A program made the translations under genes and the position numbers. The notes under the pieces were generated by a model. The model did not search any database and had not been told where the DNA came from. It saw only the letters and a list, made by a program, of their open reading frames with translations. Shown here piece by piece: positions 8,221 to 28,097 of a stretch of 63,118 nucleotides of DNA (its first letter is position 1; each line of letters starts with the position of its first letter). The stretch covers positions 1 to 63,118 of the forward strand of contig PBMS01000046.1 in assembly GCA_002722695.1 (NCBI GenBank), in the 5' to 3' direction. This DNA is from Methanobacteriota archaeon (GTDB taxonomy: Archaea > Thermoplasmatota > Poseidoniia > Poseidoniales > Poseidoniaceae).

Positions 8221-8221
8221 G

Positions 8222-9169
8222 ATGTTTGACGCTGAGGAATTCATTGCCGAGAGCATTGAATCCCTCAAAGCGACCATCGACGATGTGGCCATCATCGCAT
8301 GCTCTGGTGGTGTGGATTCCACGGTTGCTGCCGTGATCGCCAATCAAGCCGTCGGCAACCTGCTTCACTGCGTTTACGTCGACACCGGTTTCATGCGAAA
8401 AAACGAGACCGAGCAAATTGAAGCCCTCCTCGAAGAGCAAGGCATCAACCTGATCACCGTCAAAGCGGCGGACCGCTACTTTGAGGCGCTTCAAGGGGTG
8501 ACCGAGCCCGAGCATAAACGGAGGGTCATCGGTGAGTTGTTCATTCGAATTTTTGAAGACGAACAGAAAAAATGCGGTGCAAAATACCTCGTCCAAGGGA
8601 CGATTGCACCCGACTGGATTGAGTCGGGAGGCGGTGTGCGAGACACCATCAAATCGCATCACAACGTGGGCGGTCTCCCCGAGGACATGACCCTTCAAGT
8701 TGTGGAGCCTCTGCGAGAACTCTACAAGGACGAGGTTCGTGAGTTGGCTCGAAACCTGGACATCAACGTCGCCGAGCGACAACCGTTCCCCGGCCCCGGG
8801 CTTGCGGTACGAACCCTGGGCGAATTGACGCCCGACCGCGTGGCCGTCGTTCGCGAGGCCTGCGCCATCGTCGAAGAGGAGTTTGAGGCGGCTGCAGAGC
8901 GGGGCGAGATGGACCTTCCTTGGCAATACTTCGCAGCCTTGCTTCCGGTTCGAAGTGTGGGCGTCCACGGCGATGTTCGCGCTTACGGCGAAACCATCGT
9001 CGTTCGGGCCGTGCAATCCATGGACGGCATGTCAGCACGCTATTCCGAGATTCCCCACAAAATTCTCCAAACCATCAGCACGCGCATCACCAACACGGTG
9101 AAGGGTGCTGCCAACCGGGTGGTGTACGACATCACGCACAAACCACCCGGCACCATCGAATGGGAGTGA
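8222..9169 (+). CDS. guaAB: GMP synthase subunit B (ATP pyrophosphatase domain, archaeal split type)
   Basis: MFDAEEFIAESIESLK...ACSGGVDSTVAAV (SGGVDS PP-loop)...KSHHNVGGLPE...PFPGPGLAVR...YDITHKPPGTIEWE. No glutamine amidotransferase domain is attached, which fits the split archaeal enzyme. The ATG lies 1 nt after the purE stop. Confidence 0.9.
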   Translation: MFDAEEFIAESIESLKATIDDVAIIACSGGVDSTVAAVIANQAVGNLLHCVYVDTGFMRKNETEQIEALLEEQGINLITVKAADRYFEALQGVTEPEHKRRVIGELFIRIFEDEQKKCGAKYLVQGTIAPDWIESGGGVRDTIKSHHNVGGLPEDMTLQVVEPLRELYKDEVRELARNLDINVAERQPFPGPGLAVRTLGELTPDRVAVVREACAIVEEEFEAAAERGEMDLPWQYFAALLPVRSVGVHGDVRAYGETIVVRAVQSMDGMSARYSEIPHKILQTISTRITNTVKGAANRVVYDITHKPPGTIEWE

Positions 9170-9216
9170 ATCCCTTCGGGCATACCTTCTTGAACAAGAC
9201 CAAGCGAGGATTCCGT

Positions 9217-10611
9217 ATGTCTGCAATGGATGCATCCGACGCTGGTGTCGTCGGCTTGCTGGTGGCCGACGAGGTCGCGCCCGGGAGAAAAACAAGGATT
9301 CTCGGATCCGTGTTCGTGGTGTTGCTTCTGATCGGTCTCATGGTCGGTGCGAACACCCTCATGGGCAGGGAGGAATCCGATACGTCCTTTGTCGAGGGTC
9401 AACCGCTCTCCAGCAACTGGCGACCGTACTCTGTGGTGGCACCCATCGACACGGGCATCAACGTCTACCACGACCATTTCCGTACAAACGAGACCTATCC
9501 GGACTGGCTTCTTGACGGACTGGGTGTGACCAAAACATGCACCCCTACCTTCAACGGCACGTGGGAGGAACGGTTTGACGCGGACAAAGAAACATGTTGG
9601 GACACCATCACCACCTCCGACATCGTTTACTTCAAGGGCACAAAAATCATCGGAACTTCACCCGATGGGAACACAGACGTGCATATTCTCGACGATCCCT
9701 CAGACGGCCACGGTACGGCCGTGACCGGTGCAGTGCTCGACGCAAACCCAGATGCAGTCATCTTCTTTGTCGAGGGGTTCTCCACCGCAGCTGTCCTTGC
9801 GGCCGGCAATCAACCTCTCGTTGACATTGTCACAACTTCGTTCGGGGCCATCGGCTCGCTGCCCGTCCCCGGCATCGAAACCGGAACTTACCAAACGGTC
9901 GTGGTGAACAACAAAATCCACACCGGTGCAGCCGACAACACGCCCTCTCCAGCGGTCCAAGACGCCACCGCCGGTCCGCCATGGTCCATCGGAATTGCAG
10001 GCTACGCTGAGGAAGGGGACGACCAGAAGGAGACCATGAGCGGGTCCTACCCCGACATCGCTGCCGATTGGACCCAGATGCTTCCAAACCACGACGATGT
10101 GGACGGGTACCACGAAACGTCGGGTACATCGTTCGCAACACCCAGAACCGCGGGTATTCTCTCCTTCGTGCTCGAGCATCTTCGAGAAGAGGCTGGGGAC
10201 CACGGCTCAGGTGCATCCTCTGAAGACCGCAACGGTTCCCTTGTCCACGGTGTGTGGCCCGATTCCAATCCCAACGCCGGTGCCGAAGTGGAAATCACCA
10301 ACGCCGTGATTCGAGACGCTCTCAACCTTTCAGCGTGGTACCCCTCGTTCACCACGTGGGATCCTTCGGCCGGAACAATGCCGATTTCACCCGTTGCGCC
10401 CTGCACTCAGGTCGGCTGGGGCGTGGTGAACATGTCGAACATCCCACCGATGATCAAGCATCTCAACGGCACGGAATCAATCCCTGACCGCCCGGGCGAT
10501 GTCGTCCTGTGCATGCAAATCAACCAGGAGGCGCGAGAGGCGTATTGGGGTGTTTATCCTTCGGAGGAGCAACCCCTGCGTGTCTTGCAAACGGCCACTC
10601 GAGACGACTGA
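9217..10611 (+). CDS. membrane-anchored subtilisin-like serine protease (peptidase S8)
   Basis: The catalytic triad motifs are DTGINVYHDHF (Asp), DGHGTAVTGAVL (His) and SGTSFATPRTAGI (Ser). An N-terminal signal-anchor ILGSVFVVLLLIGLMVGA is present. The start was trimmed to ATG 9217, which has a GAGGA SD 6 nt upstream. The track start at 8920 lies inside guaAB. Confidence 0.85.
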   Translation: MSAMDASDAGVVGLLVADEVAPGRKTRILGSVFVVLLLIGLMVGANTLMGREESDTSFVEGQPLSSNWRPYSVVAPIDTGINVYHDHFRTNETYPDWLLDGLGVTKTCTPTFNGTWEERFDADKETCWDTITTSDIVYFKGTKIIGTSPDGNTDVHILDDPSDGHGTAVTGAVLDANPDAVIFFVEGFSTAAVLAAGNQPLVDIVTTSFGAIGSLPVPGIETGTYQTVVVNNKIHTGAADNTPSPAVQDATAGPPWSIGIAGYAEEGDDQKETMSGSYPDIAADWTQMLPNHDDVDGYHETSGTSFATPRTAGILSFVLEHLREEAGDHGSGASSEDRNGSLVHGVWPDSNPNAGAEVEITNAVIRDALNLSAWYPSFTTWDPSAGTMPISPVAPCTQVGWGVVNMSNIPPMIKHLNGTESIPDRPGDVVLCMQINQEAREAYWGVYPSEEQPLRVLQTATRDD

Positions 10612-10775: not shown

Positions 10776-12110
10776 TTATGACGCCTTCGTTGATGCAAAA
10801 TCAATCACTTCGAGCAGTCGGTGCACATGCTCAGGTTCAGATTCACCAACGGTGCACATTGCTTTGAGTGACACCAGTTCTGATTCCTTCAACGGACGGT
10901 TGTGGTGAAACGTGAACAGTGGATCGTTCTTGGCGATGTTCGTTCCCTTCGATGCCTCAATGAGAAAGCCCACGTGCGTATCGATCGGGTCGTCCAACTC
11001 AAAGCGGCCAGCTCCGTGGTTTCGTGCGAGTTGGGCCATCGCCATGGCGTCGTAACTGGAAACGTAGCCTGAGTGCTCAGCGAGGATGGTGGTCTGATGA
11101 ACCGACGACCCAAGCACCTTTTCTGGCGTTGAAATCAAGGTCTTCGCCGTCAACGGTTCGACCCCCTGTTGAACGCACATGGCTCGGAAGACATCGAGCG
11201 CCTCTCCGTTGGTCAACACCAACTCCATCCGCCTCCTCCCTTCGGCGAGGTCGACATCCTCGAAGGACATCGCCAGCAATTCAGCCCCCTGGAGGACAAC
11301 AAGTTCCCGAGTGTCCGCTGAACCTTCGCCCTGCAGGACCTCGATGCTGCCGAGGACTTCCAGTGCATTACCGATGTGAGATCCGATGGGTTCTGACATG
11401 GTCGTGAGTTGCGCAACGGTTCGTATGCCGAGTCCTTCGGCTGTTTGGACCATCGAATGAGCAAGTGCTCGTGCCTCATCCACGGTTTTCATGAACGCGG
11501 CCGACCCCGTTTTGACGTCGAGCACCAACGATTGCAGCCCCTCAGCAGCCTTCTTTGAGATGATGGACGCCGTGATGAGCGGAACGCTGTCGATGGTGTC
11601 CGTCACATCCCTGAGTGCGTACAACACGCCATCCGCAGGCGCGATGGCGTCGTTTTGGACCGCAATGCAGCAACCAACAACGTCGACGGCGGCGGTCATG
11701 GCATCTGGACTCAGCGCACAGGTGAACCCCGGAATCGACTCCAATTTGTCGATGGTACCCCCGGTGTGTCCCAGGCCCCGTCCAGCCAGCATGGGGACGC
11801 GGCACCCGCACGCCGCCAGCGCAGGCGCGAGGATGAGTGACATTTTGTCACCCACCCCACCGGTGCTGTGTTTGTCCACAACCGGGGGTCCCGCCGGCCA
11901 AGTCAGGCGCGCTCCGGAATCGATCATCGCCTCGGTCAAAATAACCGTGTCCGCAGTGGTCATTCCGTGTTTGTGAACAGCTTTGAGCCAACGCGTCGCG
12001 GTCTCGGTTGAAATCGTTCCGTTGGCGACGTTGGCTGCAAAGATCTGCAGTTCCTCAGCGGGTTGGGATTCACCTCGCAGGACCGCTTTGATGAGGTCTT
12101 CCACATCCAT
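10776..12110 (-). CDS. deoA: thymidine / pyrimidine-nucleoside phosphorylase
   Basis: VDKHSTGGVGDKMSLILAPALAACG, LGHTGGTIDKLESIPGF and a length of about 440 aa match the thymidine phosphorylase family. This is shorter than the roughly 500-aa archaeal AMP phosphorylases. A GAGGGAG SD overlaps the upstream stop. Confidence 0.85.
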   Translation of the reverse strand: MDVEDLIKAVLRGESQPAEELQIFAANVANGTISTETATRWLKAVHKHGMTTADTVILTEAMIDSGARLTWPAGPPVVDKHSTGGVGDKMSLILAPALAACGCRVPMLAGRGLGHTGGTIDKLESIPGFTCALSPDAMTAAVDVVGCCIAVQNDAIAPADGVLYALRDVTDTIDSVPLITASIISKKAAEGLQSLVLDVKTGSAAFMKTVDEARALAHSMVQTAEGLGIRTVAQLTTMSEPIGSHIGNALEVLGSIEVLQGEGSADTRELVVLQGAELLAMSFEDVDLAEGRRRMELVLTNGEALDVFRAMCVQQGVEPLTAKTLISTPEKVLGSSVHQTTILAEHSGYVSSYDAMAMAQLARNHGAGRFELDDPIDTHVGFLIEASKGTNIAKNDPLFTFHHNRPLKESELVSLKAMCTVGESEPEHVHRLLEVIDFASTKAS

Positions 12111-12119
12111 CTAGCTCCC

Positions 12120-13067
12120 TCAAATCAAACCGATTTCTTTGAGGCGTTGATGCAGGTAATCCCCTGCGTTGATGGAGGCGTAGTTTGCCTCCCCTCCCGT
12201 CATGGCCACGAAGTCAGGGTGAGGCGTAAGGTCAACCTCGTTCCGGGGGTGGACGAACATCGGCATGGAGTAACGACGCGTGTTGGCGTCCTTTGGATTC
12301 ACGACGCGATGGGTCGTTGATTTGAACAAACCGTTGGTGAGGTTCTGCAGCATATCGCCTGAGTCAACAATGATGGCGTCTTGATCTCCCTTCACTTGAA
12401 TCCACGTGCCGTCGTGGTCCATGACTTCCAAGCCGTCTGCGGTTGCTGTGACCAAGAGCGTGATGAAATTGATGTCCTCGTGAGCAGCGGAGCGCACGGC
12501 GCCTTCCGGGGTGTTTTCGCTCAGAGGGGGATAGTGAATCATGCGCATGATGGTGTTGCCTTCGGTCGACATGTTTGAGAGCCAATCTTCCGGTTTCCCA
12601 AGGTAGAGCGAACAGGCTGAGAGCAGGTGATGCGCCAGCGTTTCCATACCGGAAAAAAGCGTTTCCGTCACGTCTTGAAACCCGCTTACATGGGCGGACG
12701 GCCAGATGTTTTGCGGGTAGGTCGGGACGGTGCCATCAAGCGGGTAAGGCCGGCCGGATTGCCAGAATTCCTTGAGGTCGGGTGCGGGGTTGTCCTTTGC
12801 ATGTTCAACACCAAAGGCGGTGTAGCCACGCTGGTGGGCCATCTCAGGACGTAGATACATTCGTTTGGTTTGTTCATCCATGTCGAAGAAGGCATCGCAT
12901 TGCTCGTAGGTGTTGTCGATCAGTTCCTTTGGTATGCCGTGATGGGTAAGCGCAAAGAAACCGATGTCCTTGAGAGCGTCGCCCACCTCGTTGACGAAGC
13001 GTTGTCGCTCATTCTGATCGGCCGAGGTGGCCAAACGAAAGTCGATGGAGGGTATACTCCGAGGCAT
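12120..13067 (-). CDS. 2-oxoglutarate/Fe(II)-dependent oxygenase (isopenicillin-N-synthase-like)
   Basis: The N-terminal IPSIDF...FGFFALTHHGIP segment is DIOX_N-like. The facial triad is HEDINFITLL (HxD) plus STTHRV, followed by RYSMPMFVHP (2OG-binding RxS). Confidence 0.85.
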   Translation of the reverse strand: MPRSIPSIDFRLATSADQNERQRFVNEVGDALKDIGFFALTHHGIPKELIDNTYEQCDAFFDMDEQTKRMYLRPEMAHQRGYTAFGVEHAKDNPAPDLKEFWQSGRPYPLDGTVPTYPQNIWPSAHVSGFQDVTETLFSGMETLAHHLLSACSLYLGKPEDWLSNMSTEGNTIMRMIHYPPLSENTPEGAVRSAAHEDINFITLLVTATADGLEVMDHDGTWIQVKGDQDAIIVDSGDMLQNLTNGLFKSTTHRVVNPKDANTRRYSMPMFVHPRNEVDLTPHPDFVAMTGGEANYASINAGDYLHQRLKEIGLI

Positions 13068-13073: not shown

Positions 13074-13838
13074 TCAATCCCTGTATGCGTTCAACTTCGC
13101 CAGCAAGCGCAGGGTCTCGATGTAGATCCAGATAACGGAGATCAGGATGCCGAAGGCGGCGTACCACTCCATGAGCTTCGGTGCGCCGTTGCGAGTACCG
13201 GATTCGATGAACCCAAAGTCGCTGATGAGCGTCAATGCTGCCACGACCAAAATGAAGCACGTCAGGCCGATACCGATGGGCCCAGAGCTGTGGAGGAAGG
13301 GCACGTCGTATGGCGAGAACAATCCGAGAACGAAGGAGGTGAGGTAGAGGAGCATGATGCTCACGACCAGTCCAGAGATGATTTTGTTGAAAGCGGGTGT
13401 GGGGCGGATGATTCGAGAAGCGTACATGACGTACATCGTACCGGTGATGGCCATGGTTCCAAACACGGCTTGGAGCGCAATGCCGCTGTAGGCCGTCAGT
13501 TCAAGCGCAAGCGACATCGACCCGACGGCCATGCCTTCGAGGAGCGCATAGAGACTCATCAAGGTGGCAGGGTTGGCGGGGCGAGTCAGGAAAATCACGA
13601 GGGCCAAGATGAATCCACCGACAAAGCCAATGAGCATGAAGGCGGAAATGTACAGGCCTCCGTTGCCGTTGTTGATGGCGTTCATGCACAACACGGCCGA
13701 GACCAGAGCGCTGGCGATCGTGAGAGAAAGAAGGTAGCCGATTTTCTTCATGCTGCCCTCGACCGTCATTCGGTCGAACCCAGTGAGGTTTGGCCAGAAT
13801 TTGTTGGACAGGACGGGGTTGCTGCTGCGGATTTCCAT
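13074..13838 (-). CDS. Bax inhibitor-1/YccA-like membrane protein (BaxI_1-type)
   Basis: MEIRSSNPVLSNKFW... N-terminus followed by about 7 hydrophobic helices. The start was trimmed to ATG 13838, because the track start at 14051 overlaps the upstream giant gene. There is a 32-nt gap to the upstream stop. Confidence 0.7.
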   Translation of the reverse strand: MEIRSSNPVLSNKFWPNLTGFDRMTVEGSMKKIGYLLSLTIASALVSAVLCMNAINNGNGGLYISAFMLIGFVGGFILALVIFLTRPANPATLMSLYALLEGMAVGSMSLALELTAYSGIALQAVFGTMAITGTMYVMYASRIIRPTPAFNKIISGLVVSIMLLYLTSFVLGLFSPYDVPFLHSSGPIGIGLTCFILVVAALTLISDFGFIESGTRNGAPKLMEWYAAFGILISVIWIYIETLRLLAKLNAYRD

Positions 13839-13870: not shown

Positions 13871-16800
13871 TCAATGTTGCTCTGTTCGTGTGTGTTGAGC
13901 GACCTGTTCCTGATAGTAGGTGACCAGCTGGTCCATCGTCCATCCTTGAGCGAGGTACTGCTCGACCATTTCTGCCGTCCAGCCCGGCACCTTGGCCAGC
14001 ATTTCTGGTGTGGCGCCCGAAACGCTCGCATTCAAGACCGGCTGCTGCCAACCTTGGTTGTCAACCGTTCCACCGCTCACTTCGGCAAACGCAGCTTCGC
14101 TGATGGCGTCCTTCACGTTTTCGGATTCGGTGCGCATGCCGCGAAGAATGACGTAGGCTCCGGCCGAGAGCACCAGCGCCAAGATCATCAGAATCAGGAA
14201 GAACGACTCAGCAGAATCGCCCGCACTGCTTTCTGTGCTGTCGCCAACGAGTGCTGCGCGTTGTTCGGAGGAACATCCTTCCGCATCTGTGGCCACGCCA
14301 ACGGGCGTGTCGGGGCACTGGTCGGCTCCGTTGAGAATGCCGTCGTCGTCGAGATCGGTGTCCACCACGATCGTACCGGTTCCGCCGGTGTCGTCCACGG
14401 GTTGAATGTCCACACCAGCAAGGTCACAACCAAGCACCTCGCTGTCGTTGGTCCCGTCGAGGTCGGCATCCCACTGCGTGAGTGCGGCGAGCGGTTCAAC
14501 ATCGTCCATGCTGGAGTTAAGGGCGGTTGCTAGGGCCCATGCGACCTCAAGGTCGTCGGTGATGCAATCCCCGTCCGTGTCGGCGTTGTTGGGGTCGCCA
14601 CCGTGAAGTTGTTCGGCGAAATTGCTCAACCCGTCTTGGTCGCTGTCCATCATCGATTCGTCCATGAGAGCATCGCCCACCACGCTTCGTTGGGTTCGGT
14701 TGAGCCCGTGGGCAACCTCCCACGCATCGGTGAGTCTGTCCTGGTCGGTGTCGGTGGCGTTGTCCAATCGATGCCAGTCTTCGTACCATGAATTCATGTA
14801 AACGCCTGCAATCGCTTCGCTGGAGAGCACAAGCCCCATCTCTCGGTTGCGAACAAGCGCAGAGTCGCCCCAATTGATGGAGGACACGAGAACGTGTTCA
14901 CCGTCAACGATGACGCCTTTGTTGTGCAGTTTCGTGACGACTTCATCGCTGCTCATGACGATGGCCGCCGTGTCGTAGCCGAGGGTGTGGTTCCATTCCT
15001 CATTGAAGCGGTCGACCACGCTCTGAATGTCCTCGTCAAGGTAAGCGCCGTTCAAAATAAGCCGCAACCGAACGTTGCGCTGCGCCGCTTTCTCGAGCGA
15101 TTCAAGAATGGGGTTTTCCCCCCATCCCCACGACCAGTCCATGTCAAGGTACTGAAGTGAGAGTAAAATTTCCTCGTCGGCGCTGTCCAAAACAGCCACC
15201 AGATCATCGATGCAGTTGTCCGGGCACACGAGCAGTTGTGCGTCCACGTCGCCTTGGATGCTCGCAGCCGTCTCGCCAACGATGGCGGACGCCGATGGCA
15301 TCGTCCAGCCGGTAGGAGCATCGGTGGCCACGACCGGTGTGATGTGCTCGCGGGCTTGATTTTCATCGAAGGCAAGATGAGCAGCCACCATGGTGGCCAG
15401 GCCCGCATCGTCCACGATGACGCCCCAGTCCCGATTCCCAGCTTCACCGGGCATCGGATGGGACGAAGATTTCCAATTGCCTGAACCGACCCAAACGCTG
15501 GCGTTGTCCTTGACCGCAACTTTGCTGTGGATGTACGCATAGGGGTTCTCGCCCGTGTCGCCAAACCAACTCACCTGTGCACCGGACGCAAGGAGTTCGG
15601 TGGCCATGCCACGCTGCGTGTCGAGGTCGTATTGATTCCACCAGCTGTCGCCGTAATCCAGCACGACGGTCACCTCGACGCCTCGGTTTTGTGCATCGAT
15701 CATGGCTTGAACGAGGTGAACCTCGTGAAGCAGGTACATGTGAACGTGGAGGGAACTCGAAGCGTCGTTGATCCATGCCAGCAGGTCCGTTAGCCCGTGT
15801 TCAGGTCCCAGAAGCGGGGTCACCGATGCTGTCGTGCTGATGCTTGTGTCAATGCAGAACGTGCTGCCGCCCAAACGACTCCACTGCTCGTGCCAGTCGG
15901 CCACCGTGTCGGTGTCGGGCGTGTCTCCGCAGCCGCTTCCACGGAGGTAAATCAAATTGTCAAGGTTGGCCAGAGGTTCGGCCAAGGCGATGCCGTTCCA
16001 CCCGGGAACGGACACGGGCCCGTTGCCGTAGACGATGGTGTCGACCTCAGCACCCGACCCGTCCAACAGTTGTAGGGCAGCACCAGAATTGGGGAAGTAG
16101 AAATTCCGGTCAAGTGCCCCGTCGGCGTCGACCACGTTTCCGTCTTCGTACACCCTGACGGCGTCTGCATCGTTGGCGAGAAGCACGCTTGAGCCCGGTT
16201 GAATCATCAGGTTGCTGACGGTGGCGTTGTAGGAGCTGAGCGAACCGGTTGTGGTGCGCATCGTCCAACCGTTGAGCACCGCCAGTTTCTCGCCTTGGTT
16301 GCTGATTTCGATGAACTCCATGTCGCTGGAGATGTCCGTTGAGGCCGACGGCATGAAGCGTGTAAATCGCAAGTCGTCCTTGGTGGCGAAGTCCGCCGGG
16401 TTGGGTTCGGCTTGACCGGGTGTTGGCCAGAGTGCATGTTGCCAATCATCGCTGTCTTGCTCCCCCGGCATGAGCGTCTGGCAGTCCGTGATGACCGTCC
16501 AAGAGGCGCCGTCCACAGAACCTCCATCCGGGTGGAGAAGATCAAAAGCGTCGCCAAGTCCCGTGAGAATGTACTCGTCCATGGTGAACACGGCGCGTTC
16601 GTCGGGGTTCAGCAGAACCTTGGCGGTGTGATTGCCCTCGGTCCAGAGGCTGTCGAGGCGCATGAAGCGTCGTTCACCCTCGGCGTTGATCACCGACCAC
16701 CGACTGATGTTGAGAGGCGTGGCACCGGTGTTGTGAACTTCGACCCAGTCCTCGGTGGGTTGGATGGAGTCGTCGTTGCAGTACGGGAGGACTTCGGTGA

Positions 16801-18757
16801 TGGCAAGGTCGGTGGAACCGGTGTAGGGTGCCCAAACAGGGTTCACTTCCCCTGGGGTTACCCACGCTGACAAAATCCAATTTCCGGTGGCGTTGGCGGC
16901 GTCGGGTCCAACGCCGGCGTGCGTGCTGTTGGGGGCGACGAGGGATTCGCCTTCGACGGTGTCGGACCACGAAACGGTGTCAACGGCGGCTCCGTTGATG
17001 TCGACCAGTCCGATGGAATCCGATGAGGTGTGTTTGAGGTAGAAACTGCTTGTACCGTTCAACGCGATGAGCACGGCTTCTCCGCCTTTGACGACGGTTG
17101 TGTCCTGCAACGGCATGTTGAACTCGTGCAGGGTCAGCGAGCGTGAAGCCGCTTGAAGTTTCCAACCCGCAACATCAACGTCCATCGTTCCGTAGTTGTA
17201 AAGCTCTATCCATTCACCCATCGGCCACATTTGGCTGTCGGAGCCGACGGCGTCTGGAAGCAGCTCAGAGAAACGGACGGTTGTGGCCGAAGGCATGCTT
17301 CCCGGTTCGGGCTGCCCGGGCGTCTTCCACGCAGCAGGGGTCCAAGAATCGGCTGGGTCGCTTCCTCGAATCAGCGCCATGTCCTCTCCGTAGTCGGTGG
17401 TGTAGTCGGCGGTGTCCACGACAGTTCCCGTCATGTCTCTTAGGAAGACGTGGTTGTAATTGTCCCAAAGTTGTGTAAAACTCGTAAACTGGACCAATCG
17501 TCGACCGTCGGGGTCGATGAAGGTCGCCCCTTGCGTGGTGTTGAACACGAGGGTGCCCGGGTCGATGTGGGTGATGTTGCCCAGCCCGTCCATGATGCTC
17601 CACCCCATCAGGTCGATTGAGTTGGTGCCAGTGTTGTGAATTTCGACCCATTCGCCGTCCGGGAATGCAGCACCGTCGTTGGTGGCGTTCGGGAGGATTT
17701 CCGTAATATGGACGTCTCCAACCTGTCGTGCCATCAGTTCCATCGGCAACGGGTTCATGGCTTCGGGGGTCGGGTAAGGTGCGTTGACCCAGGGTGTGTT
17801 TGGCTGACCTGCGTCCATCAGCGCAAAGCCTTGAACGGTTGACGTCCACGAAATCTCCTGGGACTTGCTGCCGTTGGGCCATTTCAGCGTGATGCTTTCG
17901 ACGCCGTTGTTGAGCAACCCGTAGCCTGTGGTTGAATTGACGGCGACGATCCGATGCTGGCCGGGGCTGATGAACATGCTCTGAGATGCGTTAACGAGGT
18001 GTGCGCTGTTGAACGGGAATGCATGACCAGCGGCGTCCTCAATGCTGTAACCCGTCAAGTCGATGTCCGATGTTCCCGTGTTCAGGATTTCAATCCATTC
18101 ACCGCCAGGCCACGATTCATTGTCGTCGCCGGGCCACGAATTGGCCATCACTTCGGTCATGATGATGTCACCCGGGATGAGGTTGTTCGAAACCGTCGCC
18201 GTGTTGACTTGACCCGGTGTCGGGTTGTTGGTTTGAACCCAGTTTGCGGTGGCGCTGCTTGGGTCTTGCTGGTAGCTCTTGCCGGATGTTACGCTTCCCC
18301 ACGTGGCCTGGTGGAGGTTGTTGTTGTTGCTGTCCACGAGGGTCATGGACATCCCGGTGTTGGTCATGTAAAAGCCGGAAAGTCCGTTTCGAGCGATAAC
18401 GACGTACTCCCCAGCGCTGATGGTCCATGTTGAGGCGTTGCCACTCTGGTAGCCGACGATGGTGGTTGAATTGAAATCCAAGCTTTGCGATGCGCTGTTC
18501 GTGACCTTCCATCCCGTCAGGTCCACGTCAAGGGTTCCGCTGTTGTACAGCTCCAACCATTCGCCACCGGGGTAGGTGGCGTCGTCGTACCCGTTCGGAT
18601 TTGGTATCACTTCATTGATGCAAATGGAGCCGGTGCACGCCGTTGACCGACCCGCCGTGTTGACACTCGCTTCAGAGGGCAGCGTGGTCAACAACGGGGA
18701 GGTCAGCGAAAGCAAAAACAAAACGATGAGGCTGGAGGCGGTTAGGGTCTTTTTCAT
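13871..18757 (-). CDS. membrane-anchored surface protein: signal peptide + 6 lamin-tail domains + double-HKD phospholipase D/nuclease module + TSP3-like Ca-binding repeats + TM + cytoplasmic tail
   Basis: Signal peptide MKKTLTASSLIVLFLLSL. There are six LTD cores: GGEWLELYN, GGEWIEILN, DGEWVEIHN, MGEWIELYN, TEDWVEVHN and DMEFIEISN, each followed by a ...L.GW.. segment. The HKD motifs are YIHSKVAVKDNASVWVGSGNW (nt about 15470-15529) and LHNKGVIVDGEHVLVSSINW (nt about 14860-14926). D-rich repeats include DTDQDRLTDAWE, DSDQDGLSNFAE and DTDGDCITDD. The TM helix is FFLILMILALVLSAGAYVIL. The start was trimmed from GTG 18766 to ATG 18757. Confidence 0.9.
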   Translation of the reverse strand: MKKTLTASSLIVLFLLSLTSPLLTTLPSEASVNTAGRSTACTGSICINEVIPNPNGYDDATYPGGEWLELYNSGTLDVDLTGWKVTNSASQSLDFNSTTIVGYQSGNASTWTISAGEYVVIARNGLSGFYMTNTGMSMTLVDSNNNNLHQATWGSVTSGKSYQQDPSSATANWVQTNNPTPGQVNTATVSNNLIPGDIIMTEVMANSWPGDDNESWPGGEWIEILNTGTSDIDLTGYSIEDAAGHAFPFNSAHLVNASQSMFISPGQHRIVAVNSTTGYGLLNNGVESITLKWPNGSKSQEISWTSTVQGFALMDAGQPNTPWVNAPYPTPEAMNPLPMELMARQVGDVHITEILPNATNDGAAFPDGEWVEIHNTGTNSIDLMGWSIMDGLGNITHIDPGTLVFNTTQGATFIDPDGRRLVQFTSFTQLWDNYNHVFLRDMTGTVVDTADYTTDYGEDMALIRGSDPADSWTPAAWKTPGQPEPGSMPSATTVRFSELLPDAVGSDSQMWPMGEWIELYNYGTMDVDVAGWKLQAASRSLTLHEFNMPLQDTTVVKGGEAVLIALNGTSSFYLKHTSSDSIGLVDINGAAVDTVSWSDTVEGESLVAPNSTHAGVGPDAANATGNWILSAWVTPGEVNPVWAPYTGSTDLAITEVLPYCNDDSIQPTEDWVEVHNTGATPLNISRWSVINAEGERRFMRLDSLWTEGNHTAKVLLNPDERAVFTMDEYILTGLGDAFDLLHPDGGSVDGASWTVITDCQTLMPGEQDSDDWQHALWPTPGQAEPNPADFATKDDLRFTRFMPSASTDISSDMEFIEISNQGEKLAVLNGWTMRTTTGSLSSYNATVSNLMIQPGSSVLLANDADAVRVYEDGNVVDADGALDRNFYFPNSGAALQLLDGSGAEVDTIVYGNGPVSVPGWNGIALAEPLANLDNLIYLRGSGCGDTPDTDTVADWHEQWSRLGGSTFCIDTSISTTASVTPLLGPEHGLTDLLAWINDASSSLHVHMYLLHEVHLVQAMIDAQNRGVEVTVVLDYGDSWWNQYDLDTQRGMATELLASGAQVSWFGDTGENPYAYIHSKVAVKDNASVWVGSGNWKSSSHPMPGEAGNRDWGVIVDDAGLATMVAAHLAFDENQAREHITPVVATDAPTGWTMPSASAIVGETAASIQGDVDAQLLVCPDNCIDDLVAVLDSADEEILLSLQYLDMDWSWGWGENPILESLEKAAQRNVRLRLILNGAYLDEDIQSVVDRFNEEWNHTLGYDTAAIVMSSDEVVTKLHNKGVIVDGEHVLVSSINWGDSALVRNREMGLVLSSEAIAGVYMNSWYEDWHRLDNATDTDQDRLTDAWEVAHGLNRTQRSVVGDALMDESMMDSDQDGLSNFAEQLHGGDPNNADTDGDCITDDLEVAWALATALNSSMDDVEPLAALTQWDADLDGTNDSEVLGCDLAGVDIQPVDDTGGTGTIVVDTDLDDDGILNGADQCPDTPVGVATDAEGCSSEQRAALVGDSTESSAGDSAESFFLILMILALVLSAGAYVILRGMRTESENVKDAISEAAFAEVSGGTVDNQGWQQPVLNASVSGATPEMLAKVPGWTAEMVEQYLAQGWTMDQLVTYYQEQVAQHTRTEQH
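14762..15830 (-). other. duplicated PLD-family (HxK(x)4D) catalytic module
   Basis: There are two HKD motifs in one chain. HKD1 has H at 15527-15529, K at 15521-15523 and D at 15506-15508. HKD2 has H at 14924-14926, K at 14918-14920 and D at 14903-14905. Each is followed by the GS.N / SS.N segment typical of the PLD superfamily. Confidence 0.8.
15990..18628 (-). repeat. array of six lamin-tail-domain (LTD) modules (protein-level tandem repeat, about 140 aa period)
   Basis: A recurrent pattern of [IV]x[IF][TN]E[VIL]xP..........P.GEW[ILV]E[ILV].N.G....[DN][ILV].GW is seen six times. Confidence 0.8.
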
Positions 18758-18775: not shown

Positions 18776-20278
18776 TCAAATGAAGCCAAAACTGTCGAAT
18801 TTTTGGGCAAAAGTGTAGATCATGATGGGCACGAGAATAATGCCCATTCCGTGTGAGCGACGGATGCCGATTCGTGGCGGGAGCAGGCCGATGATGGTGC
18901 CGACGATGAGGACGCCAATCCCGACGAATCCTGTTGAGAGCCAAACGAGGGCGACGACAAAGAGGATGACACCCATCACCATTTGCTGCAGTGGAATGGC
19001 AGCGTGCAATCGAAGCATCCCCATTCCAACATAGCGCATCATGGGCATGGCAAGAAGGCCAGCGGCGAGGGTAACCGCCAACAAGCGAATAAAATCGGAG
19101 GTTGGTTCAAGGGAGGACCACGTCTCGATGGGGTACATCATCTTCAACGCCAAGGTTGCACCTGAACGGGAACGGCTGATGATGTAGAGGAAACCGAGGA
19201 CCATCACGGTGACCGCAGTGTTGGTCGCCGAAAGGATGGCGATGATCTCCAAATCCTGTTTGGTCTGGGGGCCTTCAACGCCCTCTTCGGCTTCGGCCTT
19301 TGCGATTTCCAGGAGTTCATCGTCGCTCAGTTCAGTCAACCGACGTGTTTCCCAATCCATGCCGAAACCTTGCTTCCCCTGGGCTTTTGCCGCCAGGTTC
19401 CGCCCGCCCATCACGAGGACGGTGGCTTGCGAGGCGGTCATTCCGGGCAGCACCCCCATGGAGGCACCAGCCACGCTCGACCAGAAGCAGGGGACGACGA
19501 GGGGTCGGGTGGGCGGCAGGGCCCAATTTTCACGCTGTGGGGGGAGGTGCGAGGTCGTTGCGTAGATGTCGAGGAGATTGGCAATACCGAACAAACCGGC
19601 CAAGCTTGGCAGCAGCAGGCTGGCATCGGGCATGCCGATCGGGGAGCGTGCGGGCAAGGTGAACACACCCCATCCATACATGCCTGCCAGCAGGAAGAAG
19701 GCCGTGGCTGCGAGAAACCCTGCAAAACGCGAGTCGCGACCGAGCACGCCTCGAGTTGATTTCTGCATCCACATCGGCCAGTCGAGCCGGGTGGTCTCGG
19801 TGGCCAAGAGCAAAAGCGAGATGGCGAGGAGGACGAAGGGAAGGACGGATCGGAGGTCGTCGTACCATCCCAGTTCTGGGCCAAACGCGATGCGAGCCAA
19901 CACGATCAACGGCAACGACAGGAACAGCCCCAATTGCGAGCCTCGAGCCGACCAGGCAACGCCTCGCGCAGCATTACCGGAAAGCAGCATGCGATGGCCG
20001 GGAAGCAGGGACAGCGCGGTGTCCCCATCCGGTGCCCCAATCAGAGCCGACGGTATGTAGTTGAGGAAGGTGTGAACGGTGCCCGTCGACACGATGATGG
20101 CGGCCACCGAAGCAAGAGGTATGCCCAAATCCAACAGAGCGGGCGAGAGCGCCAACAAAATCAGGGCGACGTTGTTCACGTGAAAACCAGGAATGAGTCC
20201 GGTCAGTGAACCCAGCATCACGCCGAAGAACAAAGCGCCCAACAACCATGCAAGGTCCAAGAAATACCCCTCGAGCAT
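18776..20278 (-). CDS. TctA-family (DUF112/COG1784-like) polytopic membrane protein
   Basis: GSLTGLIPGFHVNNVALILLAL...IPSALIGAPDGDTALSLLPGHRMLLSGNAARGV resembles the TctA/DUF112 signature. There are at least 10 hydrophobic helices with a central soluble loop. It lies 9 nt upstream of the LTD-PLD gene. Confidence 0.65.
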   Translation of the reverse strand: MLEGYFLDLAWLLGALFFGVMLGSLTGLIPGFHVNNVALILLALSPALLDLGIPLASVAAIIVSTGTVHTFLNYIPSALIGAPDGDTALSLLPGHRMLLSGNAARGVAWSARGSQLGLFLSLPLIVLARIAFGPELGWYDDLRSVLPFVLLAISLLLLATETTRLDWPMWMQKSTRGVLGRDSRFAGFLAATAFFLLAGMYGWGVFTLPARSPIGMPDASLLLPSLAGLFGIANLLDIYATTSHLPPQRENWALPPTRPLVVPCFWSSVAGASMGVLPGMTASQATVLVMGGRNLAAKAQGKQGFGMDWETRRLTELSDDELLEIAKAEAEEGVEGPQTKQDLEIIAILSATNTAVTVMVLGFLYIISRSRSGATLALKMMYPIETWSSLEPTSDFIRLLAVTLAAGLLAMPMMRYVGMGMLRLHAAIPLQQMVMGVILFVVALVWLSTGFVGIGVLIVGTIIGLLPPRIGIRRSHGMGIILVPIMIYTFAQKFDSFGFI

Positions 20279-20287: not shown

Positions 20288-22039
20288 TCAGGATTGATTG
20301 TTCACGTGCTCTTCTCGGTCGGAGACACCGTCGTCGTTGCTGTCTTCGGAGGTCGAGGACGTGCCGATTTGATCTTCAAGCGTGTCGCCCAGTCCGTCGC
20401 CGTCGCTGTCCAGCACATCGGCTTGGTCCAGAGTGTAGACCAGACTCATGCCGTCGTCGCTCTGCACTTGCCGCAGGCGGCCGGACCAGGTCATGGACTG
20501 GTCGAGGTGGTACTCGTCGACCCCGATGGCTTGACTCTGGAGGTTGAGAACCACCGAATCGTTGGAACCTTCTCGGACGAGGTGCCACTGGCCGTCCGTT
20601 TCGATGGCTTTGCCGTTGAGCAGAACGTTTTGGTCTCGGGCATAACTCCACTGGGTCGCTCCATCGTCCCAGAGGAGGGTCCGGGATGAGGGGACCGTTC
20701 CAAGCGTGTAATCGTGGACGACCAGTCGTATTCGCATGTCCTCGTCGTCCCACGACACCGAGACGTTGGCGATGATGTTCTGGCCGGTCTCCAGCCAGGC
20801 CGTGCGGGGTCCGGGAACGGACACCGCCACGGTGGTCCAACCGGGTGTGTAGGCCGCAGCGTCCACAAAATACGCTTCTTCATTTTCAACGCCGGGCTCC
20901 ACGGCGTACTTGACGTAGGCCGAGAGCGTGTAGGTCGCTTCCGGGTCGGCCACCATTCCGACGGGGTCCGCCGACAGCATGGCGAGGAGTCGGATGGGTG
21001 TTTCTGGATTGATGAGCGTCGGGGAACCACCCTCGTTCGCGTCGATGCACCAACCGTTTTCGGATTCAGACCACAGCAGACGACCTTCCACGGTTTCCAC
21101 AGTGTTGTGGACCGAAGTTGCCTCGTCCCTCGCTCGGTCTGCATCGCTGGGCAGCAAGCAAATGCTGGTTCCGCTTGGCCCGTACAGACGCCAGATCTCC
21201 GACCCGTTGGCCAGCGTCCCGGTCATGGTGACGGTCTGGCCGGATTGGTAACTCCACGTCGCCTCAGCGTTCCAGTCGAGCTGGGGAGGAGAAATGAGGT
21301 GGTTCCTGTCGACAAGAATCTCAGGCCCTTGGACCTGCAAACTCCACCGGAGGTCCCGCGTTTGATAATTGAGGGTGCCCGTGACTTCGATCTTGGAACT
21401 TGCTTCGATCCAGTCACCGATGGCCGAACGGATGATCAGGTGCATTTGGTGCTCAGAATTGCCGTAGTTGGGATGATCGCCAAGGTATGCGGACGTGAAG
21501 GTGGAGTCGGGTGCAATGGCCTCTCCAATGAAGCCCGTGAGGCTGATCACTTTTCCGTCGTAGGCGGCCGGATTTTGAGCCACATCAGCGATCGCCAGCC
21601 TCTCCACCTCGGGCAGGTCGGCCGATGTCCATTCCATCGCTCCCGCTCCAAGCGACTGAATCCATATTCTGCCGTCGTACTCAATGACGTCACCCATGAC
21701 GGTCACCGTTGTACCAATGGGCGGCATTTCGCCCGGACGATACCATCGGGATTCCACCACGCCTGTTCCATCGTCAATGATGGCGTCAACCCGATCGTCC
21801 CCCGAGGCGTAGGGGTCTTCCACCCAAGAGATGAGAGTGCCCTCAACCTTGACGACTTCGTTTTTGTATTCCAGCAACTGGCGGATTTCAATGACCTCGG
21901 GCTCGCGGACGTAGGCGTACCAGTTGAGCGTGGCCACGAGGAACATGGCAAGGGCAAACATCACCCACAATTGCTGGCCCCGCGTCTCGGGGTCGTCGTT
22001 GGTGATGCGGTCCATAAGTCCCTTCACCGCATCGGCCAT
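20288..22039 (-). CDS. hypothetical N-terminally anchored extracellular protein with OB-fold-like modules and C-terminal TSP3-like acidic repeats
   Basis: N-terminal TM LWVMFALAMFLVATLNWYAYV. Repeated V.V.G.L....D....D...DDGTG....R......G..V.V.G.V..Y.G patterns are tRNA_anti/BOF-like. The C-terminus reads DSDGDGLGDTLED...DSNDDGVSDREE. There is no recognisable catalytic motif. Confidence 0.65.
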   Translation of the reverse strand: MADAVKGLMDRITNDDPETRGQQLWVMFALAMFLVATLNWYAYVREPEVIEIRQLLEYKNEVVKVEGTLISWVEDPYASGDDRVDAIIDDGTGVVESRWYRPGEMPPIGTTVTVMGDVIEYDGRIWIQSLGAGAMEWTSADLPEVERLAIADVAQNPAAYDGKVISLTGFIGEAIAPDSTFTSAYLGDHPNYGNSEHQMHLIIRSAIGDWIEASSKIEVTGTLNYQTRDLRWSLQVQGPEILVDRNHLISPPQLDWNAEATWSYQSGQTVTMTGTLANGSEIWRLYGPSGTSICLLPSDADRARDEATSVHNTVETVEGRLLWSESENGWCIDANEGGSPTLINPETPIRLLAMLSADPVGMVADPEATYTLSAYVKYAVEPGVENEEAYFVDAAAYTPGWTTVAVSVPGPRTAWLETGQNIIANVSVSWDDEDMRIRLVVHDYTLGTVPSSRTLLWDDGATQWSYARDQNVLLNGKAIETDGQWHLVREGSNDSVVLNLQSQAIGVDEYHLDQSMTWSGRLRQVQSDDGMSLVYTLDQADVLDSDGDGLGDTLEDQIGTSSTSEDSNDDGVSDREEHVNNQS

Positions 22040-22108
22040 GCATCTGCGTGCAAACGACCATGCTTAGGCGTTGTCTTCTTCGTCGCTGGTCGGGTTCCCG
22101 AGAAGGGC

Positions 22109-22114
22109 TATAAA
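22109..22114 (+). promoter_or_regulatory. candidate TATA box (TATAAA) for the HD-domain gene
   Basis: GGGCTATAAAGAAACG lies 25-30 nt upstream of the ATG at 22139, which matches archaeal leaderless promoter geometry. It sits in the 99-nt divergent intergenic region. Confidence 0.4.
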
Positions 22115-22138
22115 GAAACGACTGGACGGCAAGCCATC

Positions 22139-23440
22139 ATGAACGGTCGAGACCGCGTGATTCGCGACGAGATTCACCGGGACATTTTGGTCCCTGCTGC
22201 TCACGCCGTCATCATCGACACGCCTGAGTTTCAGCGTCTACGAGCCATTCAGCAACTTTCGACGTGCGAATACGTCTTTCCAGCCGCCACCCACAATCGC
22301 TTTGCCCATTCCCTTGGCGCCTATCACCTTGCAGGATGTCTGGCTGCGCACCTCAACGATGTCCACCCCGGTCTGATTTCCGAAGACGATGAGGAACTCG
22401 TTCAACTTGCAGCGTTGCTTCACGACATCGGCCACCCACCCTATTCCCACCTCCTCGAAACCCCCCGGGTCTACGCCACCTTTCGCTCGCACGAGGCCTG
22501 GGGTCGCGACATTTTGGAATCCACATCCACCGCCATCGGCGTCGCGGTGCGAGAGGTGCTGGGAGAGCGCCGTTTGGGTCGACTGTTTGCACTGATGGAC
22601 GGGGCTGATGAACACGATGGGCAACCCATTCCCAGATTCATGAAGGAAATCGTCAGCAGCCAACTTGACGTGGATCGGATGGACTACATGATTCGGGATC
22701 AAGCCAACACGGGTGCACAAATTGGAGGCTTTGACAGCGCACGCGTCATCCGAGCCCTCCGGGTCGGAGACGATGGACGCATGTACGTGAAGCGGTGGGG
22801 GCTACCGGCCATCGAAGCCTACCTCGTCACACGGTACCACATGTACCAGCAGGTCTACTTCCACAAGGTCAACATGCTCACGCAGGCTTACCTCGTCAAC
22901 ATGCTCGAGCGAGCCAAGGAACTGGCAACGACCGGGGACCTCGTGGTCTCAAAGGAACTTGAGCACATGCTGCTCAACGAAGCGTTGTCCCCCGACGAGT
23001 ACGTCCTGCTCAACGACGCTCACATCAAGGTCGCTCTCCCCGCTTGGGCCAACCACAGCGATGCAAAACTCTCGGGCTACGCCGGCCGGCTCCTGGCGCG
23101 AAAGAATTTCCACAAATCCCTCCGCATCGACCATCTCACCGTGGAAATGTGCGATGTGGTCATCCCGCGGATAGGTGCATCTCTTTCCGAGATGGGCTAC
23201 GATGTTGAATTCGACTTGATTCAGGCGACCATCCGAAAGCGAGGCTACCTCCCCTACAACGGCGGTATTTTGCTGGAAGACGGGCGAGACGCATCCGAAC
23301 ATTCGGCGTTGATTCAATCGTTGGCCCAGCCTCACGAGCGGTGTCTCATCTTCGTCCCGGAAGCCGTTCGGGACGAATTGGAGCGGAACGTTCGTGAATG
23401 GATCAAACCGTCTCAATCATCCCTTGCTCAATTTGACTGA
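22139..23440 (+). CDS. HD-domain phosphohydrolase (SAMHD1/COG1078-like, putative dNTP triphosphohydrolase)
   Basis: TPEFQRLRAIQQLS...THNRFAHSLGAYHLAG, LLHDIGHPPYSH and DVDRMDYMIRD are the three conserved blocks of this HD family. The first 475 codons of the track ORF (20714-) are an antisense shadow of the 20288-22039 gene. Confidence 0.85.
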   Translation: MNGRDRVIRDEIHRDILVPAAHAVIIDTPEFQRLRAIQQLSTCEYVFPAATHNRFAHSLGAYHLAGCLAAHLNDVHPGLISEDDEELVQLAALLHDIGHPPYSHLLETPRVYATFRSHEAWGRDILESTSTAIGVAVREVLGERRLGRLFALMDGADEHDGQPIPRFMKEIVSSQLDVDRMDYMIRDQANTGAQIGGFDSARVIRALRVGDDGRMYVKRWGLPAIEAYLVTRYHMYQQVYFHKVNMLTQAYLVNMLERAKELATTGDLVVSKELEHMLLNEALSPDEYVLLNDAHIKVALPAWANHSDAKLSGYAGRLLARKNFHKSLRIDHLTVEMCDVVIPRIGASLSEMGYDVEFDLIQATIRKRGYLPYNGGILLEDGRDASEHSALIQSLAQPHERCLIFVPEAVRDELERNVREWIKPSQSSLAQFD

Positions 23441-27997: not shown

Positions 27998-28097
27998 GGT
28001 CTTCTCAGAGCGCTGCGGCGAATAAGGGTTCTTCACACCGGAGCGGTCAACCCCTCGCCACGAAGGCCTTATTCATCGTCCGGGCGTCAGCCGATTC

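Follow-up and report, generated by a model that had tools for sequence, protein, structure and literature searches.

A Six-Lamin-Tail-Domain Protein of the Phospholipase D Superfamily in Marine Group II Archaea, a Candidate Surface Enzyme for Scavenging Nucleic Acids

The stretch of DNA analyzed here, hereafter the window, comprises 63,118 nucleotides (nt) of contig PBMS01000046.1 (assembly GCA_002722695.1) from a member of the archaeal family Poseidoniaceae. On its minus strand, at 13871..18757, lies an open reading frame (ORF) for a protein in which six lamin tail domains (LTDs) precede a catalytic module of the phospholipase D (PLD) superfamily that bears two HKD motifs. We call the gene and its 1,628-amino-acid (aa) product LTD-PLD; translation begins at an ATG (MKKTL...), and an in-frame GTG at 18766 offers an alternative start. 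The catalytic residues are invariant among orthologs, the same architecture recurs throughout the order Poseidoniales (marine Group II [MGII]), and the gene sits in a conserved cluster that includes a thymidine phosphorylase. We give an even chance to the reading that LTD-PLD is a surface nuclease scavenging extracellular DNA and/or RNA. The parts of the protein, from the N terminus to the C terminus, are as follows.

18665..18757, minus strand: signal peptide, aa 1 to 31, with a hydrophobic core at aa 5 to 26 (hydropathy scan)
18269..18640, minus strand: LTD1, aa 40 to 163, core GGEWLELYN at aa 64 (Pfam; family hidden Markov model [HMM], 136 bits)
17813..18175, minus strand: LTD2, aa 195 to 315, core GGEWIEILN at aa 218 (Pfam; family HMM, 128 bits)
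17381..17725, minus strand: LTD3, aa 345 to 459, core DGEWVEIHN at aa 367 (Pfam; family HMM, 121 bits)
16934..17290, minus strand: LTD4, aa 490 to 608, core MGEWIELYN at aa 513 (Pfam; family HMM, 119 bits)
16466..16825, minus strand: LTD5, aa 645 to 764, core TEDWVEVHN at aa 668 (Pfam; family HMM, 120 bits)
16025..16387, minus strand: LTD6, aa 791 to 911, core DMEFIEISN at aa 812 (Pfam; family HMM, 89 bits)
15878..16024, minus strand: Trp/Cys-rich conserved connector from LTD6 to the HKD module, aa 912 to 960, GW.G...RG.GC...DW...W (conservation in 119 orthologs)
14753..15877, minus strand: double-HKD module of the PLD superfamily, aa 961 to 1335 (Pfam PLDc_2, two stretches; family profile, 457 bits)
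15473..15535, minus strand: HKD motif 1, YIHSKVAVKDNASVWVGSGNW, peptide at aa 1075, H1077/K1079/D1084, GSGN
14870..14929, minus strand: HKD motif 2, LHNKGVIVDGEHVLVSSINW, peptide at aa 1277, H1278/K1280/D1285, SSIN, followed by a conserved RNREMG
14213..14752, minus strand: acidic, Asp-rich stalk with conserved Cys, aa 1336 to 1515 (composition, motifs)
14138..14206, minus strand: single C-terminal transmembrane (TM) helix, aa ~1518 to 1540 (hydropathy maximum, 2.75)
13874..14137, minus strand: presumed cytoplasmic tail, aa 1541 to 1628, 88 aa (conservation)

The only catalytic domains that Pfam detects in LTD-PLD are PLDc_2/PLDc (PLDc_2, E = 9.5e-35, 119.8 bits against a cutoff of 27, two stretches); the EEP domain of ExeM and the SNase domain of Hvo_1477 are not among its matches. 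The superfamily signature HxK(x)4D(x)6G(G/S)xN occurs twice, with S in place of the first-position G in motif 2. Both motifs have Ser where the signature allows G or S (GS/SS), a pattern described as nuclease-like (PMC8004604). The two HxK(x)4D peptides named in the initial annotation of this DNA were both found, their motifs starting at H1077 and H1278. Together with GSxN/SSIN and RNREMG these motifs are invariant in all 119 aligned sequences, which share 45 to 93% identity, and the catalytic residues of both are also retained in distant relatives of 25 to 30% identity. Such invariance at this divergence points to purifying selection on catalysis, and the loss of catalytic residues that the initial annotation had allowed for did not occur in any of the 119.

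The affinities of the module within the superfamily were examined with a family profile run against all Protein Data Bank (PDB) sequences. The best match was S. plymuthica PLD (SpPLD, 7E0M; 1.4e-22), followed by Nuc (1.6e-18), Zucchini/MitoPLD (6.9e-17), NucT (2.8e-16), and PLD3 (9e-14); PssA (1e-9), then PLD4, F13, and K4 (4.5e-9 to 2.4e-8), and finally the Streptomyces and human lipid PLDs (about 1e-4) ranked lower. The possibility, raised with the initial annotation, that the module would align best with cardiolipin or phosphatidylserine (PS) synthases was not borne out, SpPLD, Nuc, Zucchini, NucT, and PLD3 all outranking PssA. According to its authors, SpPLD has loops and GS-type motifs that resemble those of nucleases and not those of Streptomyces lipid PLDs (PMC8004604). 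The conserved module of LTD-PLD is also compact: its length of ~345 aa corresponds to about two Nuc-sized lobes and a poorly conserved linker of ~50 aa and is too short for the long lipid-gate insertions that lipid PLDs of 500 aa carry. Sequence and model place the module in a compact PLDc_2 branch rich in nucleases, a placement that does not in itself specify the substrate.

Among NCBIfam models, LTD-PLD scored highest with DrmC (85.6 bits; cutoff, 133), then with NucT (46.7 bits; cutoff, 297), ClsB (28.5 bits; cutoff, 281), and Cls (bac_cardiolipin, 26.7 bits; cutoff, 290). By these thresholds it is not a Cls, DrmC, or NucT; it belongs to the PLD superfamily and, within Archaea, to an LTD-PLD family. 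A cardiolipin or PS synthase identity was rejected because the thresholds are missed about ten-fold, Pfam finds no PLDc_N domain, the protein carries a predicted export signal, and Methanoculleus marisnigri, which has a relative of LTD-PLD, possesses a separate canonical Cls. An identity as DrmC of the DISARM system was likewise discarded: it is the top NCBIfam match, yet its score falls short of the cutoff, no DrmA/B or methylase genes lie nearby, and the protein would be extracellular.

An AF2 model of aa 790 to 1345, covering LTD6, the connector, and the HKD module and built on an alignment of 35 sequences, reached a pLDDT of 89.3 and a pTM of 0.88. Because of this pTM, the model suggests that LTD6 packs against the catalytic module in a defined manner, in agreement with the family-wide invariance of connector residues W131, W166, G174, and S176 (numbered within the modeled segment). 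Searched against the PDB with Foldseek, the model returned 156 matches at E ≤ 1e-3, of which the best 50 all belong to the PLD superfamily; at the level of the fold, it has the two-lobed alpha/beta architecture of these enzymes. The best matches were the PLD3/PLD4 single-stranded DNA (ssDNA) 5'-exonucleases (E, 3e-20 to 3e-18; target TM score, 0.61 to 0.67), followed by 7E0M (9e-19) and vaccinia virus F13 (3e-17), while lipid PLDs followed at about 1e-16 with target TM scores of 0.44 to 0.54 (Streptomyces PLD, ~0.5).

The six LTD cores listed in the initial annotation were all recovered, and its proviso that the assignment might fail an HMM threshold can be set aside, Pfam LTD (PF00932) matching six stretches at E = 7.8e-81 and 268 bits against a cutoff of 34.3. 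Domain boundaries were set with an LTD HMM built from the LTD-PLD family. The six copies share 18 to 34% pairwise identity, which marks the array as the product of ancient duplication and not of recently expanded repeats. LTD6 can be aligned with the LTD or LTD-like domain at the N terminus of ~555-aa proteins of the Methanomicrobiales, the core Glu being invariant, and LTD6 plus the catalytic module thus appear, from these alignments, to be the ancestral unit common to the short archaeal relatives.

Hydropathy places hydrophobic segments at both ends of the protein, corresponding to the export signal and envelope anchor of LTD-bearing nucleases. The signal peptide, TM helix, and cytoplasmic tail of ~90 aa proposed in the initial annotation match the hydrophobic segment at aa 5 to 26, the segment at aa ~1518 to 1540, and the 88 aa that follow it. 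The sequence of the signal peptide is weakly conserved among orthologs, as signal peptides normally are. LTD-PLD would accordingly be a type I membrane protein of an MGII archaeon (Poseidoniaceae) held by its C-terminal TM anchor, and the nearest genomes, Poseidoniales metagenome-assembled genomes (MAGs), bear out the earlier view of it as an archaeal surface protein. The stalk contains 45 D/E against 4 K/R and four DxDxDG motifs (aa 1371, 1393, 1430, and 1468). These motifs agree with the TSP3-like calcium-binding repeats reported earlier, but Pfam TSP3_bac scores 19.2 bits over three stretches, below its 25-bit cutoff; the TSP3 label is therefore plausible from sequence, and the stalk probably binds calcium and is stiffened by it. 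The tail carries a conserved double motif, PGWT.E...Y...GWT.DQL..YY..Q, in the alignment of 119 orthologs, which can also be written GW..(E)...Y...GW....L..YY..Q. A Pfam search of the tail gave nothing beyond noise (E > 0.03). A related W...G.T.EDL tail occurs in two 1,000-aa relatives of 35% identity (L069 and L070), and the element might serve in docking or signaling.

More than 120 clusters were recovered when 5.8 billion proteins were searched; 118 of them are full-length orthologs (~1,560 to 1,650 aa) at 45 to 93% identity. Those with names come from “Candidatus Poseidoniales,” Poseidoniaceae, or “Euryarchaeota” MAGs and are annotated “lamin tail domain-containing protein,” “hypothetical protein,” “Cardiolipin synthase B,” or “PS/PGP/cardiolipin synthase-like enzyme.” Every one of the 118 full-length orthologs has exactly six LTDs, so that the array is fixed across the order and no peculiarity of a single genome. 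When one genome per GTDB species was scanned, the catalytic module was found in at least 72 species, essentially all of them Poseidoniales and representing both families; a few matches lie in plainly misbinned contigs. The gene was present at every Poseidoniales species locus recovered, and no paralog was found within the window. The initial annotation had implied that the hexa-LTD array was unique; this did not hold, since the six-LTD form occurs in every recovered Poseidoniales ortholog and in hundreds of database entries, and since fusions of LTDs to PLD modules are widespread among other Archaea. The window protein is nearest to that of locus L008 (88%) and then to those of “Poseidonia sp.” MAGs (76 to 78%), which identifies the window organism as MGIIa. 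Three contigs filed as bacterial, NZEQ01000004 (“Verrucomicrobiales”), JAOMAZ010000032 (a “Deltaproteobacteria” single-amplified genome), and CAXRJJ010000095 (“Yoonia sp.”), carry the complete MGII cluster of OB-fold protein, TctA, LTD-PLD, 2-oxoglutarate (2OG) oxygenase, and thymidine phosphorylase, with LTD-PLD identities to the window of 39 to 78%; they are almost certainly misbinned archaeal contigs in public genomes.

With only the catalytic module (aa 960 to 1335) as the query, an exhaustive HMMER search reached 3,493 cluster representatives at E ≤ 1e-3, 94 of them at E ≤ 1e-30; the majority align over the entire double-HKD module at 25 to 35% identity. Pfam LTD was also present in 37 of 49 sampled distant representatives, others carrying PKD or CARDB Ig-like domains, and the number of LTDs across family relatives ranges from 0 to 6. 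In five metagenomic relatives of ~1,900 to 2,100 aa (P0138, P0140, P0143, P0144, and P0150) the double-HKD module is present twice and complete each time, giving four PLDc_2 stretches, and is accompanied by four LTDs and by CARDB domains. Profile searching placed ~555-aa members, annotated “phospholipase D-like domain-containing protein,” in Methanoculleus, Methanoregula, Methanofollis, Methanocorpusculum, and Methanocalculus, and further members in Halobacteriota, Thermoplasmata, Syntrophoarchaeum, and Methanophagales (ANME-1). In the Methanoculleus protein, a signal peptide leads into a divergent LTD-like domain, after which come the two HKD motifs and, about 20 aa beyond the module, a TM helix at the C terminus; the LTD-like domain falls below the Pfam threshold, aligns with LTD6, and keeps the core Glu. 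This layout argues for an ancestral unit of signal peptide, LTD, double HKD, and TM helix, to which MGII appear to have added five further LTDs, the acidic stalk, and the conserved cytoplasmic tail. In M. marisnigri JR1 (CP000562), a canonical Cls (PLDc_N and two PLDc_2 domains) and a family member are encoded ~4 to 5 kb apart, at 2563-3996 and 8001-9677, respectively, and their presence in one genome shows the two functions to be distinct.

In the window, LTD-PLD belongs to a cluster of six minus-strand genes separated by gaps of 6 to 53 nt, which is bordered by a divergently oriented gene. The neighbors are as follows.

22067..23440, divergently adjacent: HD-domain dNTPase-like gene
20288..22039, minus strand: 583-aa protein (no Pfam or NCBIfam match; OB folds in an AF2 model)
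18776..20278, minus strand: TctA-family permease, 18 nt upstream of LTD-PLD (Pfam TctA, 4.2e-42; synteny)
13074..13817, minus strand: Bax-inhibitor-1-like (BaxI) membrane protein
12120..13067, minus strand: DIOX_N/2OG-Fe(II) oxygenase
10776..12110, minus strand: thymidine/pyrimidine-nucleoside phosphorylase (NCBIfam)

The phosphorylase exceeds the cutoffs of NF004490, for thymidine phosphorylase (440 bits; cutoff, 269), and of TIGR02644, for the pyrimidine-nucleoside phosphorylase subfamily (423 bits; cutoff, 409), and fails that of the archaeal AMP phosphorylase (190 bits; cutoff, 535). When the cluster neighbors were searched by tblastn against 81 fetched loci, the order 583-aa protein, TctA, LTD-PLD, (BaxI, 2OG oxygenase), and phosphorylase was kept in every sufficiently long Poseidoniales locus; in loci of the Thalassarchaeaceae type, BaxI and the oxygenase are missing from the cluster and the phosphorylase directly follows LTD-PLD. 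The oxygenase has a possible role in pyrimidine salvage. Its assignment as a thymine-7-hydroxylase was considered and no call was made: the fungal thymine dioxygenase 5C3P matches at 5.6e-27 alongside many other 2OG oxygenases, the best match is the uncharacterized 3OOX (3.5e-53), and ethylene-forming enzyme is among the matches at or above 5C3P. A scan of the cluster for bacterial-type promoters and terminators gave counts no higher than shuffled expectation, this type of scan being inapplicable to archaea.

The 583-aa protein, encoded two genes upstream of LTD-PLD, is a “hypothetical protein” confined to MGII. Its AF2 model (pLDDT, 77.6; pTM, 0.54) has an N-terminal TM helix, about five beta-barrels, and an acidic TSP3-like tail. 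Foldseek matched it to p204 HIN bound to double-stranded DNA (6e-11), RPA70 bound to ssDNA (8e-8), ribosomal S1, CST, LEF-3, TEBP, and Teb1, and to the anticodon-binding OB domain of AspRS/AsnRS with a root mean square deviation of 2.0 Å over 95 columns at 20% identity; its top matches are without exception OB-fold proteins that bind nucleic acid. The protein is thus predicted, on the model, to be a membrane-anchored series of about five tandem OB folds. Its isoelectric point (pI) of 4.15, like that of the surface and not the cytoplasmic proteins of this genome, suggests display at the cell surface.

Several other window genes encode large surface proteins, all on the plus strand unless noted: a 3,181-aa protein (29519-39064), unusually large for AglB, in which a multi-TM STT3/AglB oligosaccharyltransferase domain at the N terminus is fused to a greatly extended extracellular part containing CarboxypepD_reg-like repeats and ending in a TM helix; a 1,483-aa protein with a beta-helix and Big_7 (40476-44927); a 1,945-aa protein with TSP3 (52215-58052); and a CARDB protein on the minus strand (26288-28036). 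Between surface-protein genes lies one for an 844-aa STAND-type NTPase (AAA_16/nSTAND6; 44940-47474, plus strand) with an N-terminal HTH and a C-terminal TPR region. The window surface proteins all have a pI of ~4.1 and 3.6 to 5% K+R, so that strong acidity is general to the exoproteome and uninformative on substrate. The HKD module of LTD-PLD is itself strongly acidic (53 D/E against 17 K/R), and the argument that this would oppose DNA binding was dropped for that reason.

The observations can be assembled into the following model. LTD-PLD would be exported by the Sec pathway and its signal peptide cleaved, the C-terminal TM helix retaining it at the membrane; outward from the membrane would stand the acidic stalk, the two-lobed HKD phosphodiesterase, and the six Ig-like LTDs. 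Extracellular polymer might be captured by the LTD array together with the separately encoded surface OB-fold protein and then be cut by the HKD module. HKD enzymes cleave phosphodiesters independently of metal through a covalent phospho-histidine. By analogy with the superfamily, one His would attack the phosphodiester to form the phospho-histidine and the other would protonate the leaving group, with no metal required. The products would be imported, for which the TctA-family permease is a purely conjectural candidate, and pyrimidine deoxynucleosides could then be cleaved by the co-clustered thymidine phosphorylase and enter pyrimidine salvage. Nucleotide and nucleobase transporters are highly expressed in MGII metatranscriptomes (PMC9723583), and LTD-nuclease proteins have been depicted in DNA foraging by marine sediment bacteria (PMC8289736). 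That the whole cluster forms an MGII surface module for nucleic acid foraging, with a membrane-anchored multi-OB-fold capture protein, a TctA-family permease, a metal-independent hexa-LTD nuclease of the PLD type, and a thymidine phosphorylase, is a broader proposal, which we advance tentatively and regard as doubtful.

A number of points weigh against a nuclease and its foraging partners. The motifs of the PLD superfamily cannot tell nucleases from lipid enzymes, LTD-PLD reaches no NCBIfam nuclease equivalog threshold, and the Foldseek E values of PLD3/4, SpPLD, F13, and lipid PLDs lie only a few orders of magnitude apart; PLD3/4 lead that ranking at 15 to 17% identity to the module, SpPLD and F13 being nearly equal to them. 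In the short Methanomicrobiales relatives, the module lies ~20 aa from the membrane anchor, a position that also suits a lipid substrate. MGII genomes are highly syntenic overall, so that conservation of neighbors within the order is weak evidence of functional linkage, and the cluster partners are not linked to the family gene in the 35%-identical non-MGII relatives (L068 to L071) or in Methanoculleus, whose neighborhoods gave no functional hint. The OB folds of the 583-aa protein come from a medium-confidence model (pTM, 0.54), no support for them was found by sequence (Pfam at E ≤ 10, NCBIfam, and PDB profile), and sugars too can be ligands of OB folds. MGII are portrayed as consumers of lipids and fatty acids, and the LTD of ExeM is largely dispensable in vivo (PMC6085458).

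The initial annotation had named extracellular DNA and phospholipid as possible substrates, and we retain both. LTD-PLD might instead be a phospholipase D or transphosphatidylase working at the cell surface on exogenous phospholipids, those of algal or bacterial membranes, vesicles, or detritus, and releasing head groups such as choline, ethanolamine, or serine for uptake, with the LTDs as a spacer or membrane-contact device; we judge this unlikely, though it is the main rival. Phospholipases D are defined by the domains PLDc and PLDc_2, the nearest PDB protein by sequence (7E0M) was deposited under a phospholipase name, lipid PLDs, PssA, and the vaccinia virus F13 envelope phospholipase are significant structural matches, and MGII are regarded as degraders of lipids and peptides. 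Mans et al., as cited in PMC6085458, proposed that LTDs target hydrolases to membranes, and the module adjoins the membrane in the short relatives. The classical lipid PLDs are, however, the weakest of the matches both by sequence (~1e-4) and by target TM score (~0.45 to 0.5), and the additional lipid-gate loops described for them (PMC8004604) are missing from the 345-aa module. The cut itself would supply no fatty acids to beta-oxidation and set no phosphate free, a poor fit to what is known of MGII nutrition; the conserved cluster holds no lipid-metabolism gene but does encode thymidine phosphorylase and a protein with predicted OB folds; and a module behind a six-domain array and not at its tip would be awkwardly placed to reach the membrane of another cell.

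The substrate could also lie in the cell's own envelope, LTD-PLD being then an outer-leaflet head-group exchanger, a cardiolipin-type synthase, or a phosphodiesterase or transferase whose target is a phosphodiester-linked surface polymer or glycan. The names “Cardiolipin synthase B” and “PS/PGP/cardiolipin synthase-like” given to orthologs, the weak NCBIfam matches to ClsB and Cls, the universal and apparently single-copy, housekeeping-like distribution of the gene in MGII, the position of the module at the membrane surface in short relatives, and the window's genes for a giant AglB/STT3 fusion and for further surface glycoproteins would all be in keeping with such a role. We nevertheless think it improbable, given that the Cls cutoffs are missed about ten-fold in bit score, that neither PLDc_N nor an N-terminal TM pair was found by Pfam, that in MGII the module would be extracellular and a 180-aa stalk away from the membrane, that M. 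marisnigri keeps a separate canonical Cls near its family member, and that six LTDs are hard to square with a housekeeping lipid enzyme. It is highly improbable that the protein is an adhesin or structural surface fiber whose PLD-like module is a noncatalytic binding domain: a long modular protein with Ig-like repeats and a calcium-binding-type stalk does resemble many adhesins, and several further giant surface proteins are encoded in the window, but the HKD, GSxN, and NRE residues are invariant in 119 orthologs and kept in relatives of 25 to 30% identity, which would not be expected of a degenerate pseudoenzyme. What likelihood remains we assign to other phosphodiester substrates. Scavenging of extracellular DNA and/or RNA by a surface nuclease is the reading we carry forward.

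No paper describing or testing LTD-PLD was found in the literature on lamin tail domains with PLD, with Archaea, or with MGII, nor is the protein mentioned in the MGII comparative-genomics and metatranscriptomics papers searched; the sole paper to name both Poseidoniales and phospholipase D includes an MGII genome within a survey of PLD homologs. The architecture is already in public databases under automatic names and is thus uncharacterized, not unseen. The “cardiolipin synthase” annotation of its orthologs is wrong and should be corrected. The ecology of MGII, a globally abundant uncultured group, has been deduced from genomes and is now summed up as the degradation of proteins and lipids. 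If LTD-PLD is a nuclease working with the OB-fold protein, the permease, and the phosphorylase, the MGII repertoire would come to include the turnover of dissolved DNA and RNA, in which much P and N is pooled, and PLD would be the third independent catalytic fold fused to LTDs, beside EEP and SNase, sharpening the question of what LTDs do in prokaryotes. Were the foraging module also real, an archaeal group among the most abundant in the surface ocean would be a major consumer of such nucleic acids, and prokaryotic LTDs would gain a defined role in handling nucleic acids, in a module design not described before. As a lipid PLD, by contrast, LTD-PLD would give MGII their first assigned surface phospholipase.

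The closest parallels in design are found among enzymes of other folds. Like LTD-PLD, ExeM/NucH of Shewanella and Vibrio combine a signal peptide, an N-terminal LTD, a phosphodiesterase domain, and a C-terminal hydrophobic anchor, and they share an association with OB-fold modules, which are in the chain in ExeM and in a separately encoded predicted partner of LTD-PLD. ExeM, which has the EEP fold, degrades DNA more slowly in vitro once its LTD is deleted, and it cannot do without its OB-fold region (PMC6085458). ExeM is bacterial, is metal dependent where the HKD/PLD chemistry is metal independent, and has one LTD against six; its sequence homology with LTD-PLD is confined to the LTD. Hvo_1477 of Haloferax volcanii, a surface thermonuclease with an LTD that is required for growth on extracellular DNA (PMC3929857), is the sole archaeal precedent with genetic evidence for a surface-tethered, nuclease-type enzyme bearing an LTD, but it has an SNase fold, a single C-terminal LTD, a lipobox anchor, and a length of ~330 aa against 1,628 aa. 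Because the catalytic folds differ, LTD-PLD is a member of neither the ExeM nor the Hvo_1477 family, alike as the designs are.

Within the superfamily, PLD3 and PLD4 resemble LTD-PLD in being single-chain, double-HKD proteins with a single-pass tether that places the enzyme on the noncytoplasmic side, and they act on ssDNA and single-stranded RNA. They differ in having an N-terminal, type II anchor instead of a type I anchor, in lacking LTDs and a stalk, and in working in the acidic lysosome, and at 15 to 17% identity their homology to LTD-PLD is at the level of the superfamily only. Nuc (Salmonella plasmid pKM101), NucT (Helicobacter pylori), and Zucchini/MitoPLD are, after SpPLD, the nearest sequences of known activity, with lobes equal in size to those of LTD-PLD (about 155 aa); they are single-HKD homodimers, whereas LTD-PLD is a fused pseudodimer with two HKD halves. 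SpPLD (7E0M), the top PDB sequence match, is likewise a compact, 391-aa double-HKD protein, although it is bacterial and without LTDs or an anchor, and its authors left its own substrate selectivity unresolved (PMC8004604). The ~555-aa archaeal relatives are true homologs across the whole LTD6 and double-HKD unit, aligning over their full length at 25 to 30% identity, but have one LTD-like domain instead of six, neither the Asp-rich stalk nor the long cytoplasmic tail, and another gene neighborhood.

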